From the UHGV virus genome UHGV-0125199: a DNA stretch of 64,000 nt. One strand, given 5' to 3'. The notes under the pieces were generated by a model. It saw nothing but the letters and a program-made list of their open reading frames with translations. It ran no database searches and was not told where the DNA came from. Source of the stretch: a virus. Below, piece after piece: positions 3,752-64,000 of this stretch (position 1 is its first letter; every line of letters starts with the position of its first letter). Both the position numbers and the translations under genes were made by a program.

Positions 3752-4291
3752 ACCCATAGGACTAATAACTTTTCCGTATTTATGGTACATTTTAGACACT
3801 GTTGTATCTCCATCTAAACTTAACCAGTCTGGATACATTGTTTTTGCAGAAGTTTTAATTCCTTCTTCAAACAATTCTTCGTTTACTTTGCCTTTTCCGT
3901 GCAGCTCTTCTGTATAAAGAAATACAAGTTTTGGGAACAATACAGGCTTTTTATTTCCGTCTTTTCCTTGTCCTTCTCTATGTACTCTAAGAAATGTTTT
4001 TGAAGCCATTTTAGCAAAAGAATCTGTTCCCAGACCAAATGTAATGGTGATGAAGGGATAGTCCCCTCTGCTGGATGAGACAGTATTAAATTTGTATTCG
4101 AGTCCTTGATAACCTTGTGCCATATCACGTTCTACTTTTCTCATAGCGTAGTCATGAGCTTTCTGTTCAAAATCTGAATGTCTATAATCCAGTAAGTTAT
4201 CTGCAATATCATAAAATTCGTGTTTGTATTTTTCATAACTTTTTTCAGCATATGGCACTAACACCTCATCAATCTGCGGAAGTGTAAAACC
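3752..4291 (-). CDS. nrdD: NrdD exon 2 (GFTLPQIDEVL ... KVISPMG)
   Basis: Aligns to E. coli NrdD 'IYGGTTINRIDEVLAPF...TPMG'. ORF ends KCKSAHVKRY* and start TTG are intronic. Confidence 0.75.
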
Positions 4292-5196
4292 CAAGTGTGT
4301 TTACACACACATGCACTATTTCTTCAATGATTGCTAATCATTGCCTTGCGCTTCGATGCAGGATTTTCACCTATACATCTACTCTACTCACTTCTTCATA
4401 TTCATTCTCGCTATATCGAATGAATATTATGTTTTCGATAGTCTCTGAACCTTCACATAAATCTTCTGTTGATATTTATTTAATTATTTATCCCTTCTAT
4501 AAGAAAATAGAAATTTTTATTCTCGGATTCATTTTTTGCTATTCTTCTTATTTGCGTACAAGAAACATTTGTTCCTCTTGACGCAGCCTCAATACTTTCA
4601 TATACTGTATGTACATTGGTTTGTTTATCAATGCTAATACACCGTCTTTTCATTAACTTTGGTCGGTTTATGGGGCGGTGTAATTTATCATAGGCATGTT
4701 TTTCGTTTTCTGAATATGTAGCCCATTCTAAATTGTCTACTCTGTTATTTTTTCTATTTCCATCTATATGATTTACGGTTGTTTTATTAGTTGGATCATC
4801 ATTTTCTAAAAATGCTTCTGCAACTAATCTATGAATCTTAAAACATTTTCTTTTGTTATTTTTTCTCAAATGTATCTCACATACTTCTACTCTTTTGTTG
4901 TAGCATATTGACAGAATTTTGCCTCTTATTAGTTGCATATTATCGTATCGTCCTTTTACATATCTGTCTAAACTTCTGATTCTACCAAATGTACTTACTT
5001 GATACATTCCTTCATAATCTCTAATATCTTTCCAAATTTCTTCTATATATAACACTCTCCTTGTTTTATACAGAAGATTTATGTGCTTGGCACACCGTTC
5101 CGTTTCCGGTTCAGTGTTAGCAGTCTTTTAAATTTTGACCACACCGCTTATTTAAGCGTTCACAAGGTTTTTAAGTACGGCAGTCGGATTATTTTT
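4292..5196 (-). mobile_element. Group I intron 1 in nrdD carrying an HNH homing endonuclease gene
   Basis: Splits QQYG|GFTL (E. coli HIYGG|TT). 5' exon ends in U and intron ends in G (ttG|GGT). Contains the 191-aa HNH ORF. Confidence 0.6.
4480..5055 (-). CDS. HNH homing endonuclease (intron-encoded)
   Basis: 'NHIDGNRKNNRVDNLEWAT' HNH motif plus N-terminal 'EGMYQVSTFGRIRS' NUMOD4-like motif, inside the nrdD intron. Confidence 0.8.
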   Translation of the reverse strand: MLYIEEIWKDIRDYEGMYQVSTFGRIRSLDRYVKGRYDNMQLIRGKILSICYNKRVEVCEIHLRKNNKRKCFKIHRLVAEAFLENDDPTNKTTVNHIDGNRKNNRVDNLEWATYSENEKHAYDKLHRPINRPKLMKRRCISIDKQTNVHTVYESIEAASRGTNVSCTQIRRIAKNESENKNFYFLIEGINN

Positions 5197-56024: not shown

Positions 56025-56270
56025 TTTATTTACCTCTTTTGATATTAATCACATCGGTATTTACAATCTTATATCACATGCAGCTCACAAACATTTTCAA
56101 ATAGCGACAAATGAAATAGTTTGTTGAATCAACGTTTACAGTTTCTAAATATTCGATTTACTGTAGGTGATATTTGATTATAAACACCGATGAAAATCAT
56201 ATGCAGAACTTTATGTATCTTATTTTATTGGAGGTATGAAACATGTATAGAAATTTATTCCGCATATGAA

Positions 56271-56341
56271 TTGTAGATAAAGGATTTGAACCTTTTCTTA
56301 TGCGCCACACTACATCGTGCTACCATTTACACTAATCTACA
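56271..56341 (-). other. tRNA-like element (good acceptor, D and T arms; no canonical anticodon stem), possibly a tRNA pseudogene
   Basis: Minus-strand TGTAGAT..GTGT-AAATGGTA-GCAC..AAAGG-TTCAAAT-CCTTT-ATCTACA-A. The 21-nt anticodon region cannot form a 5-bp stem. Confidence 0.25.
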
Positions 56342-56465
56342 ACTTTTAGGATATTATTATGAAAACTAGATCATTACTATTTAAGGAGAGCAATATTACT
56401 ATGAGAACCAAAAAAACAATAAAAAATATTATTTAAAATCCAATACAAAATAGTAATAACCTAAA

Positions 56466-56538
56466 TGGATCATTCGGGACTCGAACCCGAAACCGATCGG
56501 TTATGAGCCGATTGCGCTCACCATTGCGCCAATGATCC
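56466..56538 (-). tRNA. tRNA-Met(CAU) (or fMet/Ile2-lysidine); CCA not encoded
   Basis: Minus-strand cloverleaf: acceptor GGATCAT/ATGATCC, D GCGC/GCGC, anticodon stem ATCGG/CCGAT with loop CTCATAA, T stem TCGGG-TTCGAGT-CCCGA, discriminator A followed by TTT. Confidence 0.8.
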
Positions 56539-56772: not shown

Positions 56773-57144
56773 TTAGCCTTCTAATTTTCTTAGTTCTGTC
56801 ATTAAATTCACTAACTCTCTATTGTTCTTATTAATTAAACGATTGATTTCTTTGATTCTATCAATACGTTCTTCTTCCTCTTTACGTTTTGAATATGCCT
56901 CCATATTAACAACGCCGACTACCTGAGCTGTAGGATTTTCGCCATATACACTCACAGGTAAAATTACTTTTACCTTTCCTAATACTCTCCTATCTTTGTT
57001 TCTTGCATTTACAACCACAAGTGTATTATTCAAATTTGCTGTTCTAAGTAATTCATATTCTTCCTTATATAATGCAAATCCATAATCTTTTTTGTTATGG
57101 TCTTCTAGTAAGTTCACAATTGCAACTAAATCACATACTGTCAT
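56773..57144 (-). CDS. hypothetical protein
   Basis: 123-aa ORF. Confidence 0.3.
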   Translation of the reverse strand: MTVCDLVAIVNLLEDHNKKDYGFALYKEEYELLRTANLNNTLVVVNARNKDRRVLGKVKVILPVSVYGENPTAQVVGVVNMEAYSKRKEEEERIDRIKEINRLINKNNRELVNLMTELRKLEG

Positions 57145-57190
57145 AGTTTTATTCTCCTTTTTAATCTAATAATTCTTTATCGATAATCTG

Positions 57191-57555
57191 TTTCCATCCT
57201 TATATTTGTATAAATTACATCTTCTTTTTCTATTTTTTATAATGCAGCTTTTCGCTCGCATTTCAATCATCATACTAATGTAAATTACATCCATTTCGTG
57301 ACGTATCTCTGATACAAAACATATAATTTCAATCCTCATACTTATGTAAACTACATCTTTATAAAAGTCTTTGGTGTTACTATTGTCTTTTATTTCAATC
57401 CTCATACTTATGTAAACTACATCGAGGTATTGAAATGGTTGACTTTGGTATCACATTATTTCAATCCTCATACTTATGTAAACTACATCCTCTCTTACAA
57501 AAATCTGCATTTTAAGCATTTCAATTTCAATCCTCATACTTATGTAAACTACATC
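57191..57555 (-). CRISPR. CRISPR-like array: four perfect 32-nt repeats (ATTTCAATCCTCATACTTATGTAAACTACATC on + strand) with 34-nt unique spacers, plus two degenerate distal repeats; lies downstream of and co-oriented with tnpB
   Basis: Perfect repeats at 57326-57357, 57392-57423, 57458-57489, 57524-57555 (period 66). Degenerate copies at 57191-57221 and 57261-57291 (3 and ~8 mismatches). Repeat contains 5-bp hairpin ATGTA-aac-TACAT. Spacers all different. Confidence 0.75.
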
Positions 57556-57762
57556 ATCAAAAATACACAAATATGACATATCTATTTTATGTAACTTACA
57601 CAATTCTAAGGTTACAAAAGCGTTATCCGTTTTCGTATATGTAAATAAATGATTACTACTCACTGATTTCTTTTATCTACTTTAGTGCGAATAAACCGTA
57701 TAACTTATGTTCACTTCATATTCGCACATGGCGGCGTTGAACCTGCAACCATGTATATGTAT
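57556..57762 (-). ncRNA. Structured non-coding scaffold between tnpB stop and the array (omega-RNA/tracr-like candidate)
   Basis: Perfect 9-bp inverted repeat GTGCGAATA...TATTCGCAC (57675-57727), second stem CATGG..CCATG, and a repeat-like segment 'ttatgtaacttacaca' (~57587-57602). Confidence 0.3.
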
Positions 57763-58062
57763 TTAAGCTATTTGCTTCTTATATTCTTTCTCTTTAGCCA
57801 TGTTCAAAATATTAATTGCAGCATTAATGTCTCTATCATGAATCGCTCCACATTCAGGACAAATCCAGCCTCTTATTTTTGTATCTTTTGTATTTACGTT
57901 CACAAAACCACATTTACTGCATGTTTGTGTTGATTTTTTATATTGTCCAATTGCAACAACCGGTACACCATATTCTTCACCTTTTCTTTTTAACAAAGTA
58001 AGAATTTCTCCCATCGCTGCATCAGATAAATTATCATTTCTCACTCTTGTTTTTCTTGACAT
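57763..58062 (-). CDS. tnpB: TnpB/Cas12-like RuvC nuclease, C-terminal part (Zn finger plus RuvC-III), separated from the N-terminal part by a frameshift
   Basis: 'CSKCG...[19 protein letters not shown]' is the canonical TnpB C-terminus. Overlaps upstream ORF by 29 nt at gtcaagAAAAAcaag. Confidence 0.75.
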   Translation of the reverse strand: MSRKTRVRNDNLSDAAMGEILTLLKRKGEEYGVPVVAIGQYKKSTQTCSKCGFVNVNTKDTKIRGWICPECGAIHDRDINAAINILNMAKEKEYKKQIA

Positions 58063-59167
58063 ACATATCTTTAACCGACAAAGTTTCTATTCCAATAAAG
58101 TCTGATCTTTTTATAACTTCTAACACCATATTCTCCATATGATATTTTCTTTGTCGTGTTACCTTTCTTTCTAATTTTGCTTTTTTAAATTTTGTTTCTA
58201 TGTATCTTTTAGAAGGCTTTAATTCAACATTTTCTTTTCTTAATTCACTTAATCTTTTCCTAAACTCAATATTGCTATACCCTTGTCTTCTGGATAATTG
58301 CCTATTTAACATCTCACGATGTTGACGAACACTTCCGTCTCTACCATTTTTGAATCTAGGATTATCATATTTTGTTCCGTCTGATAAAGTCATCAAAGTT
58401 GAAATTCCAACGTCAATTCCTATTTCTCTTTTCTCTTCTTCTACTTTCACAATCCTATAAATATCTTTCATACATAGCTGTAAAAAGTAATCGCCACAAT
58501 TATCTTTTTTTACAGTTGTTAATATTTGTTGTTTCTTATGTAAATTCACATATTCTTCAAAATTCATCATGCATGATGAATCAAACCAGACATTTTTTAG
58601 ATATCCTTTAATCCCCCTAATCTTTACCTTTCCGATTTTAGCTAAATTAAAATATGCTACATTTTTATTCTCCTCATTAAAGCTCATTTTTCTCAGAAAT
58701 TCTTGATATGTATAACTTGTTCTCGGATGTTTCTTTGAATAATATGGAGGTTTACTGTTCTCAATCGGTCTTTTAACTCCCTTTCCATTTGTTTTCTTAT
58801 TAGAATTTTCTCCACTCACTTGAGCATCCAATCGCTTCGACAAATCACACAAGAAAACTCCATTCTCACCAGACAAAGCACCCGCTGGAATCAATTTAAT
58901 GTCTTCTCTCCTACTTCTTAACACATCCAAATACTGTTTCTTTGCAATAGACTTTACATCCGGAAAATGAACAGTTTGTCCTGCATTCTTTTGGTCTGGT
59001 CTTTCAATTGTATTAACTTTATTTTCAAACATATCGTAAACAGCCATATTACACGCCTTATGTAAAGCCAAAATAATTCTATCTATTAATTCACTCTGCT
59101 CTTTATTCGGATACATTCTAAAATTGAAAGTATATACCGGTATTTTTATAACTTTTTCAACTAGCAT
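58034..59167 (-). CDS. tnpB: TnpB/Cas12-like RuvC nuclease, N-terminal part (WED/REC-like region, RuvC-I, RuvC-II)
   Basis: N-terminus 'YTFNFRMYPNKEQSELIDRIILALHKACNMAVYDMF' (TnpB 'rlyPt.eQ...fg..r.vyN'). RuvC-I 'IGIDVGIS', RuvC-II 'FIGIETLSVKDM'. AAGGAGG RBS and TTGACA upstream. Confidence 0.75.
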   Translation of the reverse strand: MLVEKVIKIPVYTFNFRMYPNKEQSELIDRIILALHKACNMAVYDMFENKVNTIERPDQKNAGQTVHFPDVKSIAKKQYLDVLRSRREDIKLIPAGALSGENGVFLCDLSKRLDAQVSGENSNKKTNGKGVKRPIENSKPPYYSKKHPRTSYTYQEFLRKMSFNEENKNVAYFNLAKIGKVKIRGIKGYLKNVWFDSSCMMNFEEYVNLHKKQQILTTVKKDNCGDYFLQLCMKDIYRIVKVEEEKREIGIDVGISTLMTLSDGTKYDNPRFKNGRDGSVRQHREMLNRQLSRRQGYSNIEFRKRLSELRKENVELKPSKRYIETKFKKAKLERKVTRQRKYHMENMVLEVIKRSDFIGIETLSVKDMYVKKNKSEK

Positions 59168-59274
59168 TTAACCAGACCTCCTTTTGCTACATTTCATACC
59201 ATATACTGTATTTTTATATCAACTAACGCACTATATAATGTGTCAAATTCCAAATGAAATCGAGATTTAATTAT

Positions 59275-60039
59275 TTAAGATTCGGTGATAAAAAACGGAC
59301 GAACACCATAATCGCCCCAAACGCAACCGCCGTAGCACACGTTACCACCACCGTAAACAACCTGAACACAGGAAGCATCTTTTCTTGATTTCGTCTGATT
59401 TGGAGTTGACAGCCAGTATGGATAATTGATTAGTGGAAGTTTTTCACCACATTTTCTGAATAAATCAAAAGTCGGAATAGACAATACATCATCTTTTACA
59501 ACACCATAATCATTAAATCCATCCATACTAAGCAAGTTATTTTCAACTGGAGTAATACTATTTCCATATTTACATTTAATGTCTTTTGCAAGCTTGCACT
59601 CTTTAAGATACTTTCTTACAGAAGATTCTGCGTAGTTATTATTGCTGCCAAAACTCATATTCGTAAGAACTCCATACATAAAATGATATATCTTTCCATA
59701 CATTCGAATGTTTGTCCAATAATATCCAAATTCCTCTTTAAAGTGCTTGTTCATAAAATCTTTAACGGATTCTCTAAATTCATCTTCATATCTCTCTGGA
59801 TCGTTACTATACCATTCTGGTACAATATCCTGATCGACTTTATAAGTCCACTTTGAAATATCGGAAGTGATAATATATTTCTCTGGCGGAATTAATTCTG
59901 CTCTCACAAATTTCTTAGAAGCATTAAATTCATTATCTTCTACATCCAATTTTTCAAGCAAACTTGAATGACTTTCATTTCCTAACGGAGCAAGTTCCAC
60001 CCTATTCTTAAAAATAATTCCACTTTTAAACTCACACAT
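59275..60039 (-). CDS. hypothetical protein
   Basis: 254-aa ORF upstream of tnpB. Confidence 0.3.
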   Translation of the reverse strand: MCEFKSGIIFKNRVELAPLGNESHSSLLEKLDVEDNEFNASKKFVRAELIPPEKYIITSDISKWTYKVDQDIVPEWYSNDPERYEDEFRESVKDFMNKHFKEEFGYYWTNIRMYGKIYHFMYGVLTNMSFGSNNNYAESSVRKYLKECKLAKDIKCKYGNSITPVENNLLSMDGFNDYGVVKDDVLSIPTFDLFRKCGEKLPLINYPYWLSTPNQTKSRKDASCVQVVYGGGNVCYGGCVWGDYGVRPFFITES

Positions 60040-60846: not shown

Positions 60847-62328
60847 TTATCCTACAAGTTCATACTTGTTCCTTAAAAATTCACCAATATCATTTACCAT
60901 GTATGTATAATTTTCTTTTTGATCTTTAATATATGTAGAATTTCTGTTAAAGAAACTTCCCATCCACTCAGGAATTTCTAAATCTATGTTTGTTTCAAAG
61001 CTGTACGCAACAACAGCAAGTAAAGAATTCATGTTTTCAGGCTCAAGAAGCTTAGATGAACCGTCAATTTTTTTGTCCTTCCGTAGTTTTTTTACCCAAT
61101 CATTTAAAGAAATCTTGTAAATTTCAACATCTTCACCAATCACATCTTCTTTAACATTTTCTTTGATAAATTCAAGAGCGTTCTGGTCTGAAGAAGCATT
61201 ATCTATTACATTATTCTCTCCCACTTCGACAAGACTTTCTTCATCTTCTTTAATATGTAAATACTCTTTCATAAGAGCAGTTAAGATGTTAATTTTCTCT
61301 TTTAAAATAGCCTTACCTTTTGTATGACGATCCTCATTTAATTTGTCAAATGTTGCTCCATTTACATCTTTTTTATATAAAGACTTTTCAAATTCTTCTA
61401 CAAAATCCTTAAACTTAATATCATCTAATCCAAATTTAGCAAACTCTTTAAACACAGGGATCCAAACAATAACATTTTTTGGCACAAACACTTCTGTGAA
61501 ATTATCTTTGCACACAGATTCAATCCTGCTAAAATATTCATTTACAGTATCAAAGTGTTCTTCCGTTGCGTTCTCATTTAGATATTTGCTCATGTTCTTT
61601 ATTGCACTTTTCCAGTTATCAAAGAAAAACGTTGTCATGACAGATTCACATACAAGTCTTTCTCTAATACCTTTCGATTGCTGCTTACCGGAACAAGACA
61701 TACAATTTTTAAAGAATTTATTTTTCTCAGATATTGTCCTTATTTTTCTTGCATGTAAATCAATATAAGTAAATGCTTTCTGAGATGTATTCATTCCCAA
61801 ATGATTGTTGTATCTTCTCACCAATTTACTAATCTGTGACATCGTACAATGCTGATGTATTGTAATGTCAATCTGATAATCATCAAACATTTTTTTCAAT
61901 TCTGGCGGTAACATTTCATATGTTTTTCTTCTCAAATCATATTCAACAGATTCCCAAATAACTTTTCCGTATTCATCTTTACAGATTTTATTATTTTCAT
62001 CTTTCTTTTTTCTCTGATATTGGATAATTGGATCTTCTAAAGCAGCTGTAATTTTATAGTTTTCATGCTTAAATTTAATCAACGCAGAACTTCTTTGCAT
62101 TCCATCAACAATGTATTGCTGCACAACGTCTTCGTCCAAATCTTCTTCTCCTAAGATAATTGGGGGAATATAATCATCAGTTAATACAGTTTTGATTAAC
62201 TCATTCACCATTCCATTTTCCCAACAAAACAGTCTTTGAACGTCCTGATTATCACTAATATCTTCTTCCACAATCTTTTCTAAATAAGAATCTAGCGATA
62301 ATGTCTTTTTTCTAATTTTCTTTGCCAT
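60847..62328 (-). CDS. DUF262 (ParB/Srx-like, GmrSD N-terminal-type) domain protein
   Basis: 'QRLFCWENGMVNELIKTVLTDDYIPPIILGE...YIVDGMQRSSAL' matches the DUF262 core (DGQQR-type motif). No obvious HNH/DUF1524 C-terminal half. Confidence 0.5.
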   Translation of the reverse strand: MAKKIRKKTLSLDSYLEKIVEEDISDNQDVQRLFCWENGMVNELIKTVLTDDYIPPIILGEEDLDEDVVQQYIVDGMQRSSALIKFKHENYKITAALEDPIIQYQRKKKDENNKICKDEYGKVIWESVEYDLRRKTYEMLPPELKKMFDDYQIDITIHQHCTMSQISKLVRRYNNHLGMNTSQKAFTYIDLHARKIRTISEKNKFFKNCMSCSGKQQSKGIRERLVCESVMTTFFFDNWKSAIKNMSKYLNENATEEHFDTVNEYFSRIESVCKDNFTEVFVPKNVIVWIPVFKEFAKFGLDDIKFKDFVEEFEKSLYKKDVNGATFDKLNEDRHTKGKAILKEKINILTALMKEYLHIKEDEESLVEVGENNVIDNASSDQNALEFIKENVKEDVIGEDVEIYKISLNDWVKKLRKDKKIDGSSKLLEPENMNSLLAVVAYSFETNIDLEIPEWMGSFFNRNSTYIKDQKENYTYMVNDIGEFLRNKYELVG

Positions 62329-63704: not shown

Positions 63705-63862
63705 GATTTTCTAAAAAATTGCATCAGAAATAAGCGTTTAGAAACTTGTCCACACGATTGAACTTCTCATGGCTAAAGCCACGAGATTCTTGGGAACTCT
63801 TTTCTATTGAAAAGATATTTACCAAGCTAACTCGATAGTTCCTACCGTTATTATTTATTTCG
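63705..63862 (-). ncRNA. Putative omega-RNA / right-end region of a second TnpB element
   Basis: Follows tnpB-2 stop; contains 8-bp hairpin CTCATGGC-taaa-GCCACGAG; no ORF. Confidence 0.3.
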
Positions 63863-64000
63863 TTACGCTACTTCTAATATCCTTAATCCTTCATTTAGAA
63901 TATTTATCGCAGCATTTATATCTCTATCGTGATGAGTATGGCAACAAGGACAATCCCATTCTCTAACATTAAGATTTTTAGTTTCTTTATTCACATATCC
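63863..64000 (-). CDS. tnpB: Second TnpB-like protein, C-terminal fragment (gene continues past the window edge)
   Basis: Minus-strand translation '...[33 protein letters not shown]' is a canonical TnpB Zn finger plus RuvC-III. No Met start inside the window, so absent from the ORF track. Confidence 0.6.

Follow-up and report, generated by a model that had tools for sequence, protein, structure and literature searches.

The phage DNA analyzed here, a stretch of 64,000 nucleotides (nt) from the virus genome UHGV-0125199 (hereafter the window), carries on its minus strand, at positions 57190–59167, genes for a TnpB-like nuclease, followed by a structured RNA of ~207 nt and then by a CRISPR mini-array. 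The direct-repeat family underlying the array has six copies within 57189–57563, with start-to-start spacings of 70, 66, 66, 66 and 66. Read on the minus strand, the repeat is the 32-mer GATGTAGTTTACATAAGTATGAGGATTGAAAT, of which there are four exact copies (57326–57357, 57392–57423, 57458–57489 and 57524–57555) and none in shuffled sequence; a fifth copy with three mismatches (57260–57291) and a sixth that has decayed further (57190–57221) complete an array spanning 57190–57555, in which the youngest spacer adjoins the structured RNA. Counted from that end, spacers 1 to 4 are each 34 nt long (57490–57523, 57424–57457, 57358–57391 and 57292–57325), while spacer 5, the oldest, is 38 nt (57222–57259) and is flanked by decayed repeats. 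An earlier note, made from the letters of the sequence, had described these four perfect repeats, the 34-nt spacers and the two decayed repeats at the distal end, and this description of the array was borne out.

The nuclease is encoded in two overlapping open reading frames (ORFs), both on the minus strand. ORF1 (58034–59167; 377 amino acids [aa]; PF01385, OrfB_IS605) comprises a WED/REC-like N-terminal part, RuvC-I (GIDVG, including D252; codons 58406–58420) and RuvC-II (IGIETL, including E361; codons 58079–58096). ORF2 (57763–58062; 99 aa), which starts with its own ATG, comprises the zinc finger/TNB region (PF07282, Cas12f1-like TNB, 74 bits), with a complete CxxC…CxxC motif and all four cysteines, and RuvC-III (HDRDINAA; codons 57817–57840). 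A single NCBIfam model, guided_TnpB, is matched at its positions 2–305 by ORF1 and at 301–388 by ORF2. The ~460-aa TnpB-like nuclease of the earlier note therefore does possess the three RuvC motifs and the zinc finger attributed to it, but it is a single protein only after the two ORFs (377 + 99 aa) are joined, a point that the note itself registers in speaking of joined ORFs.

Among proteins of solved structure, the closest sequence to the joined 466-aa protein is LaTranC (9jfo/9jfq; E 1.8e-66, residues 4–460), with weaker matches to ISDra2 TnpB (1e-25) and to Cas12m/Cas12n (1e-10 to 1e-11). An AlphaFold model of the joined protein, built from a 17-sequence alignment (predicted local distance difference test, 87.4; predicted template modeling score, 0.78), likewise had LaTranC as its best Foldseek match (template modeling [TM] scores of 0.83/0.81, 32% identity), ahead of the TnpBs (TM 0.56–0.62; ISDra2 TnpB, 0.56/0.70) and Cas12f (~0.55). 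D252 aligns with D253 of LaTranC, and this residue, E361 and the RuvC-III aspartate are all intact. The NCBIfam Cas12f2 model gave 34.9 bits against a cut-off of 450, so that the protein does not match the Cas12f family. Judged by sequence and by the model, the nuclease is best assigned to the already described TranC class rather than to a new one, which agrees with the suggestion in the earlier note of an intermediate between TnpB and Cas12, since LaTranC is the type member of that class, published in 2025. Cleavage of double-stranded DNA guided by both CRISPR RNA (crRNA) and right-end element RNA, a characteristic of TranCs, may extend to the window nuclease.

The two ORFs meet at GATATGTATGTCAAG (58055–58069, minus strand), where a tandem ATGT duplication, read from the sequence, ends the ORF1 frame nine codons on and provides ORF2 with an ATG in the +1 frame; deletion of 4 nt at the junction restores …VKDMSRKTR…, matching unsplit homologues. 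In the AlphaFold model of the joined protein, confidence within the C-terminal half is lowest around the split site (residues 368/369), which comes after the RuvC-II strand and before the helix that follows it. A junction that looks like a 4-nt tandem duplication invites the view that the two ORFs are a frameshifted pseudogene in a decaying system, whose array is a relic or acts only via RNA binding by ORF1, and the deletion of most of the locus in one related phage (L010), as well as a sister lineage without catalytic residues, could be read in the same way. We nevertheless judge this explanation to be quite improbable, because the same break is found in relatives that differ from one another in how it is built. 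Inspection of ORFs revealed a large ORF together with one of 92–101 aa in the window and in the related loci L006/L008, L117, L102, L011 and L118, and the split occupies the same site in lineages that are as little as ~51–54% identical, invariably after (D/S)M, with ORF2 starting M-S-(R/K). The extra sequence there measures 7 nt in L102 (+1 frame) and 8 nt in L011, where the ORFs overlap in ATGA (−1 frame). Proteins of ORF1 length (361–386 aa, ~79% coverage) account for 37 of the 48 best protein clusters and extend to ~46–51% identity, one of them coming from a Blautia caecimuris isolate genome; a strain of this species, GCA_042853845.1, carries L011 as a prophage. Across the six split lineages ORF2 has kept its ATG, its four cysteines and HDRD(I/V)NA, and the ratio of nonsynonymous to synonymous substitutions is 0.07–0.25 for ORF2 (with synonymous divergence of 0.56 to >3, i.e. 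near saturation) and 0.06–0.26 for ORF1 in comparison with five relatives; moreover, the arrays of split loci still turn over. The earlier note had spoken of a protein to be repaired, and this part of it cannot be upheld: the two-ORF state is conserved under purifying selection and is not damage.

Programmed ribosomal frameshifting was considered as an explanation of the two-ORF arrangement and rejected, as the frame of ORF2 is +1 for the window and L102 and −1 for L011, the inserts are of 4, 7 and 8 nt, and an ATG is always present; with frame offsets and insert lengths varying between lineages, there is no single conserved programmed-frameshift site. This pattern points to production of ORF2 by separate initiation or by translational coupling, and we infer that the nuclease is a two-subunit enzyme. 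At a LaTranC-like locus (L150, 2501–4146), an ORF of 99 aa overlaps the end of a 449-aa gene and may encode the C-terminal extension of LaTranC separately; the wider family would then include another split, of a different kind.

The RNA segment between the nuclease genes and the array (57556–57762, minus strand), which is contiguous with the array, has the properties of a tracrRNA-like scaffold (resembling trans-activating crRNA) derived from an omega RNA. Its minimum free energy (MFE) fold has a z score of −3.65, with none of 200 shuffles as good, in keeping with the structured segment of ~200 nt noted earlier. It is identical in L001 and L002, two IMG/VR contigs of phages near-identical to the window phage, and is conserved to ~37% protein identity; the order gene, scaffold, array holds in all family members examined, from 98% to ~37% protein identity, and additional arrays have their own scaffold copies, in which the anti-repeat fits the repeat of that unit. 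Seventeen scaffold-plus-repeat units were aligned and their structure was derived with RNAalifold, the pseudoknot being added by hand. The consensus consists of two 5′ hairpins (P1 and P2) and two helices in which the scaffold pairs over a long range with the repeat. In this structure 96.4% of the alignment cells are paired, versus 34–43% when the partners are slid by 1–3 columns, and 18 pairs are altered on both sides (55 cells), values that 0 of 500 shuffles reach.

Each element of the predicted structure contributes to this result. Hairpin P1 (57727–57753; helix 1) is 100% paired with two compensatory pairs, and P2 (GTGCGAAT…ATTCGCAC, 57685–57727; helix 3), which also appears in the MFE fold, is 95.7% paired, again with two compensatory pairs. 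Two anti-repeat segments (57587–57613; helices 4–6) face the repeat: UGUGUAAGUUACAUAA (57587–57602) pairs with repeat nt ~2–14, and CCUU (within 57606–57613) pairs with GAGG of the repeat. All 10 of the 10 anti-repeat pairs have changed on both sides, and the central pair of CC[UA]N:G[AU]GG is AU in seven sequences and UA in six. The third contact is a proposed pseudoknot between the P1 loop UUCAA, within GGTTCAAC (57736–57743), and the repeat tail UUGAA; this helix is 98.8% paired and takes the form CCCAA:UUGGG in L122, and by eye, outside the alignment, CACAA:UUGUG can be read in L123/L124 and UCUGU:GCAGA in L150. The spacer begins 2 nt past the pseudoknot. Judged by these pairings, which all lie on the minus strand, the guide RNA appears to be functionally split into a tracr-like scaffold and a repeat-spacer part. 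The MFE fold of the window sequence contains a 15-bp anti-repeat/repeat duplex, i.e. pairing in cis, and since the scaffold is contiguous with the first repeat, the youngest spacer should lie in a natural single-guide RNA.

Comparison of near-identical phages reveals that the array is active in acquiring spacers. The window, L001 and L002 have in common a gene-to-array stretch of 213 nt, the distal spacer (with small differences) and the decayed terminal repeat, while their gene-proximal spacers and repeat counts differ; proximal spacers turn over likewise in L099 versus L100 and in L102 versus L103 versus L104, which are from different samples. Variable proximal spacers next to a fixed distal end indicate that new spacers enter at the gene-proximal end, and the stretch of 207–213 nt must therefore double as the leader.

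The targets of these spacers are other phages. Spacer 1 matches IMGVR_UViG_3300045988_181040 (41 kb) at 34 of 34 positions, with the 5′ flank tTTC, and _180649 at 31 of 34. Spacer 2 matches both UViG_3300045988_181040 and the related _180649 at 34 of 34, with the same 5′ flank, and its protospacer overlaps the start and upstream region of a helix-turn-helix gene that is Cro/CI-like by sequence. Spacer 4 matches five contigs of the same target group (L151–L155) at 31–32 of 34 positions, with TTT as the 5′ flank and with mismatches distal to the protospacer-adjacent motif (PAM); these sequences, with TTT and 2–3 mismatches, may be escape variants of the rival phage. Three spacers of L001 and L002 match the same group as well, including spacer 1 of L001, for which an exact search of IMG/VR gave arrays alone and a protospacer was found with 2 mismatches. 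An exact match to the first 22 nt of spacer 3 was absent from IMG/VR and the JGI metagenomes, 39 spacers gave no match to INPHARED phages (blastn, E up to 0.5), and a comparison with the collected relative and host loci, at a stage when these did not yet include the target-phage contigs, gave self-matches alone. In sum, the three related arrays have six distinct protospacers, all situated in a single group of IMG/VR phages of 22–41 kb, and the PAM, on the spacer-sense strand with the array read on the minus strand, is 5′-TTC at five of the six and TTT at the other. The side of the PAM and the polarity of the spacers establish the order repeat then spacer, with a 5′ PAM and a minus-strand reading; a plus-strand, Cas12a-like reading of the repeat was rejected on these two grounds. 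The array is alive and polarized, and the data support the view that its spacers are aimed at competing phages. In each of these respects the expectations of the earlier note were realized: the search that it proposed yielded protospacers and a PAM, the 5′ TTC on the spacer-sense strand places the guide at the 3′ end on the tnpB strand, and the matches of three related arrays to a single group of other phages speak for a role in conflict between viruses.

The same observations bear on whether the locus is simply an IS200/IS605-type TnpB element with array-like subterminal repeats. Pfam and NCBIfam do label both ORFs as TnpB family, but we give this explanation hardly any credence. There is no TnpA, the genes are present in single copy at a conserved position in related phages, and the spacers differ among near-identical phages and match other phages beside a conserved PAM; the repeats are not ends of an insertion sequence. 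The protein stands apart from multi-copy insertion sequence TnpBs, scoring 78–80 bits with IS200_TnpB (cut-off, 425) and likewise falling far below the cut-off with IS607_TnpB, and the other tnpB fragment of the window (63863–64000) has a different 3′ flank that is free of repeats.

TTC is the PAM of type I-C CRISPR systems, and the phage array resembles those of type I-C in several other ways. When genomes were scanned for GAGGATTGAAAT occurring twice at the spacing of an array, 84 loci were obtained, most of them long arrays of Lachnospiraceae, Oscillospiraceae and other Bacillota with a period of 66–68 and a 32-nt repeat that is GTCGCTCCCCTCGCGGGAGCGAGGATTGAAAT or a close variant; an earlier scan that required the last 16 nt of the phage repeat twice had found nothing, being too specific, and the 12-nt version found the host arrays. 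One of these (L053) is preceded by genes for Cas4, Cas1c (TIGR03640, 437 bits versus a cut-off of 385) and Cas2. Phage and host repeats are equal in length (32 nt), in their first base (G) and in their last 12 nt (GAGGATTGAAAT), which include the 11-nt type I-C 5′ handle, and spacers are 33–36 nt long in phage-family and host arrays alike. The leader end of the window array (TTTGTGTATTTTTGAT, 57556–57571, minus strand) resembles the type I-C leader-repeat junction, for which the last 16 nt of host leaders have the consensus TTTGTATATTTTTGCT (n = 13), also written TTTGT(A/G)TATTTTTGCT. Against the profile of host leaders it scores 13.5 bits, more than any other 16-mer of the window on either strand, and most family members score 10–17 bits. 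The conservation of the leader end is not accounted for by RNA pairing, as this motif is part of the loop, itself unpaired, that separates the anti-repeat from the repeat. These likenesses suggest that spacers are acquired in trans through the type I-C Cas1-Cas2-Cas4 of the host; a plasmid system considered below would be a parallel.

How the phage array came to resemble type I-C can be read in two ways, both of which stand: a type I-C system could have been the source from which the array was captured, or compatibility with type I-C could have arisen by convergence of an omega-derived repeat. The repeats of L119 and L120 are near-canonical for type I-C, starting GTCGC/GTTGC and ending GCGTGGATTGAAAT, and those of L105/L106 and of the LaTranC-like L150 have a common GAAACAAC… start. 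So wide a range of repeat types among distant members is compatible with either direction of evolution.

The type I-C features also raise the possibility that the effector is not the nuclease at all, the array being an orphan type I-C mini-array retained so that host Cascade-Cas3 destroys rivals, and the TnpB-like genes being mere neighbors or serving in RNA binding or processing. A Cascade substrate would be expected to have the last 12 nt, including the 11-nt handle, identical to those of host type I-C repeats, a 32-nt repeat with 34-nt spacers, a leader end that fits the host profile and a TTC PAM, all of which are observed, and the beginnings and ends of the L119/L120 repeats, as well as a hairpin in type I-C register that some family arrays retain (L099b, −10 kcal/mol), point the same way. 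We nonetheless consider this explanation unlikely. The repeat of the window lacks the type I-C hairpin (−1.4 kcal/mol, z −0.05, versus −15 kcal/mol for the host repeat), which argues against processing by Cas5c. Furthermore, covariation of scaffold and repeat at three sites has no reason in an array that serves Cascade only, the TnpB-like gene keeps its scaffold and array in relatives of as little as ~37% identity, purifying selection acts on both ORFs, whose catalytic residues are intact, and LaTranC, the relative of solved structure, is a nuclease that depends on TTC and takes CRISPR RNA as its guide. One may speculate that the hairpin was lost because the guide would be separated from the anti-repeat duplex by a cut 11 nt upstream of the spacer. 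A weaker form of this alternative, in which host Cascade and the phage nuclease both load the crRNAs, may hold, and it, like the Cascade-only explanation, would accommodate a nuclease-dead sublineage that maintains three arrays, one of them with the hairpin in type I-C register.

That sublineage (L099–L101; ENA metagenome scaffolds; proteins P0009, P0010, P0012, P0013, P0015 and P0016) is an unsplit sister of ~60% identity, in which the RuvC-I aspartate is replaced by R or H, the zinc finger is deleted and RuvC-III reads HDK[A/T]V, with loss of its aspartate. Its loci have three scaffold-plus-array units. In one of these units (L099b; L099, 2466–2940), the repeat GATGCAATCTACGGGATTGCATGGATTGAAAT forms a hairpin of −10 kcal/mol, whose dot-bracket register is that of the host type I-C repeat. 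The sequences of this sublineage suggest nuclease-dead, RNA-guided binding or dependence on some other effector. The L099–L101 phage also has a consensus promoter and terminators.

Other relatives vary the arrangement further. In L102/L103 (4375–5250) and L117 (4403–5210) a single split gene is followed by two tandem scaffold-plus-array units, each with a different repeat and with an anti-repeat to match. In a member that is 39% identical (L106, 3834–4080), the scaffold is followed by a single repeat-like unit and then by the next gene, an arrangement that resembles a classical omega RNA or a collapsed array. The ~90-kb relative L010 (IMGVR_UViG_3300045988_153370, 3970–5101) retains the first ~103 codons of ORF1 and lacks everything from there down to ~53517 of the window, including scaffold, array and tRNAs. 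No array was seen at the LaTranC-like locus L149, where a gene for an rve-family integrase lies directly 3′ of the TranC-like gene.

Taken together, the fold of the nuclease, the covarying scaffold and the polarized array with its phage targets make it probable, in our view, that the locus is a phage-encoded CRISPR system of the TranC type, a type V-like intermediate between TnpB and Cas12, directed against competing phage. Some observations weigh against this conclusion or against parts of it. The TTC PAM, the 11-nt handle and the leader fit host type I-C Cascade equally well, and the PAM cannot separate the two effectors. The nuclease-dead L099–L101 keep three arrays with spacer turnover, so that arrays can evidently be useful without the nuclease activity of the family. 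ORF2 is preceded by a weak Shine-Dalgarno-like sequence, a scan of 57100–59300 for promoters and terminators gave nothing above background, and we found no report of a split TnpB in the literature, so that a split RuvC nuclease is without precedent there. Finally, no cas family member or Cas1-like ORF was present among the window ORFs scanned, the window being 64 kb of a ~90-kb phage, and no cas3-cas5-cas8c-cas7-cas4-cas1-cas2 operon was found among them beside the array, as the earlier note had also observed of cas genes in the neighborhood.

According to the mechanism that we propose for this TranC-type system, the whole locus would be transcribed from the minus strand. The ~207-nt scaffold 3′ of the nuclease genes would correspond to the 5′ part of a former omega RNA, and each 32-nt repeat to its missing 3′ part, pairing with the scaffold at three places: the anti-repeat would bind repeat nt ~2–14, CCUU would bind GAGG, and the P1 loop would bind the tail UUGAA. 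The spacer, starting 2 nt after the last contact, would sit where the guide of an omega RNA would sit. The first repeat would pair in cis to give a single-guide RNA with the youngest spacer, and later repeats would pair in trans. The two polypeptides, of 377 aa (RuvC-I and RuvC-II) and 99 aa (zinc finger and RuvC-III), would rebuild one RuvC site, and the complex would cut DNA that has a 5′-TTC PAM beside a match to the spacer. New spacers would be inserted at the scaffold-proximal end by the type I-C Cas1-Cas2-Cas4 of the host, the phage array being a mimic of type I-C in its leader-repeat junction and in the length and ends of its repeats. The start of transcription, the processing of the RNA, the assembly of the subunits, the cleavage of DNA and the agent of adaptation are all predicted from the features of the locus. 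A more ambitious proposal unites a natural two-subunit effector with a chimeric array and with array capture or compatibility as a route to type V. In this chimeric array the 5′ half of the repeat would serve the scaffold, while the leader end and the repeat ends would stay type I-C-like for host Cas1-Cas2-Cas4. We advance the combination tentatively, its chances seeming to us close to even but somewhat short of it.

The closest known relatives are the TranCs ('transposon-CRISPR intermediates'; Jin et al., Cell 2025, doi 10.1016/j.cell.2025.09.004). As described in the literature covered, TranC effectors are TnpB-derived proteins of ~300–600 aa in which the omega RNA has been functionally split into tracrRNA and crRNA, and they have mini-arrays with repeats of ~32–38 nt and no adaptation genes; clades 3 and 11 have ~32-nt repeats and few spacers, and LaTranC uses a 5′-TTC PAM and a single-guide RNA with stems and a triplex, and is inactivated by D253A. 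The window system resembles these in its TnpB-sized effector, its co-oriented downstream mini-array with a guide formed by scaffold and repeat, its 5′-TTC PAM, the lack of adaptation genes in the window ORFs scanned, its ~32-nt repeats and its few spacers, and L150, a LaTranC-like locus, follows this scaffold plan too, with 32-nt repeats whose tail is GCAGAAG. It differs from LaTranC (structures, PDB 9jfo/9jfp/9jfq) in having only ~32% identity and no C-terminal extension of ~100 aa, in its two-ORF effector, in residing on a ~90-kb phage and in the type I-C-like repeat tail and leader end. The TranC class, the split into tracrRNA and crRNA, the TTC PAM of LaTranC, the lack of adaptation genes and occasional carriage by phage were thus already known. 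The conserved two-ORF effector, the type I-C likeness of leader and repeat, the cis single-guide arrangement for the youngest spacer and the dead sublineage with several arrays appear to be undescribed, provisionally so, as the original TranC paper lies outside the literature covered.

With the IS200/IS605 TnpBs, such as ISDra2 TnpB (PDB 8h1j, 8exa), the window system shares the RuvC/zinc-finger architecture, a downstream RNA with a 3′ guide and a 5′ target-adjacent motif (TAM) or PAM, and these proteins form the second-best fold class; the single repeat-like unit of L106, followed by flanking DNA, is a further likeness to omega RNA. Unlike them, the system is not mobile, has no TnpA, and has several exchangeable guides and a two-part guide RNA, and its PAM is 3 nt rather than a 5-nt TAM such as TTGAT. 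The type V-F Cas12f and V-U* effectors also derive from TnpB, are small, and have a tracrRNA and an array downstream but no cas1 or cas2 (Altae-Tran et al., PNAS 2023, PMC10691335), but the window model matches Cas12f folds more weakly (TM ~0.55). The survey in which they were described left aside arrays linked to other CRISPR types, and a split gene may escape screens of that kind. Phage-borne Cas-phi/Cas12j, Cas-lambda/Cas12n and CauTranC9 likewise have mini-arrays without an adaptation module and a presumed role in superinfection exclusion, as far as the sources available describe them, but they belong to other TnpB/Cas12 branches and give much weaker fold matches; no two-gene effector is reported among the compact type V effectors of phages in the literature covered.

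Acquisition of spacers through mimicry of a host array has been described for plasmid type IV-A3 systems, which obtain spacers in trans by resembling a co-resident host type I-E array, so that their own array is filled by the Cas1-Cas2 of the host (bioRxiv 10.1101/2023.06.23.546257). These systems share with the window locus their location on a mobile element, the absence of adaptation genes of their own (in the window, among the ORFs scanned), mimicry of a host type I array and involvement in conflict between elements. The IV-A3 effector is, however, a multi-subunit class 1 complex on plasmids with a type I-E donor, whereas that of the window is a TnpB-derived class 2 effector on a phage with a proposed type I-C donor. 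A preprint on a 'Cas12 hacker' was considered as a precedent for array hijacking and set aside, as its subject is thioredoxin activation. Relative to the type I-C arrays found in Lachnospiraceae and Oscillospiraceae hosts, with which it has in common the 32-nt repeat, its first G and last 12 nt, spacers of 33–36 nt, the leader end and TTC, the phage array has no adjoining type I-C cas genes and has an AT-rich, scaffold-pairing sequence in place of the GC-rich hairpin.

The system is embedded in a phage replication and nucleotide-metabolism region with genes for DNA polymerase, ligase, helicase, NAMPT, RNA ligase and a CCA-adding enzyme. Relatives of the window phage are contigs of ~90 kb and ~160 kb, and no near-identical DNA was found among cultured phages. 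Just downstream of the array lie two minus-strand tRNA genes (56270–56342 and 56466–56538), the only hits of an Rfam scan of the window; one is a tRNA-Met (CAT) and the other, to which ARAGORN assigned no anticodon, scores 47 bits as an Rfam tRNA. About 1.7 kb upstream of the system, a 493-aa ORF (60847–62328, minus strand) has a GmrSD N-terminal (DUF262-type) domain and is possibly a phage-borne restriction or anti-competitor gene. The second tnpB gene, of which 43 aa are visible at its 3′ end (63863–64000, minus strand) before it is interrupted by the end of the window, has a downstream flank (63705–64000 including the gene end) that differs from that of the nuclease genes and contains no repeats, and it resembles an ordinary omega-RNA-type TnpB.

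The finding bears on how type V systems obtained their arrays, for which insertion beside a pre-existing array cannot be ruled out relative to duplication of omega-RNA segments (PMC10691335). In this family a single repeat holds both the omega-style pairing and the type I-C leader, length, handle and PAM, so that a single locus and a single host system suffice to put the question to the test. One group of 22–41 kb phages, including its Cro/CI-like switch region, is targeted by three related gut phages of ~90 kb, and this constitutes direct evidence of CRISPR conflict between phages. A borrowed host type I-C integrase would explain how a phage CRISPR system lacking adaptation genes stays current, much as for the type IV-A3 systems of plasmids. 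If confirmed, a RuvC effector conserved as two genes would give split compact editors a precedent in nature, and single-ORF screens would miss such systems. Should the combined proposal prove correct, the locus would be a living example of the array capture or compatibility route to a type V system, in which a phage parasitizes the adaptive-immunity machinery of its host to fight other phages.

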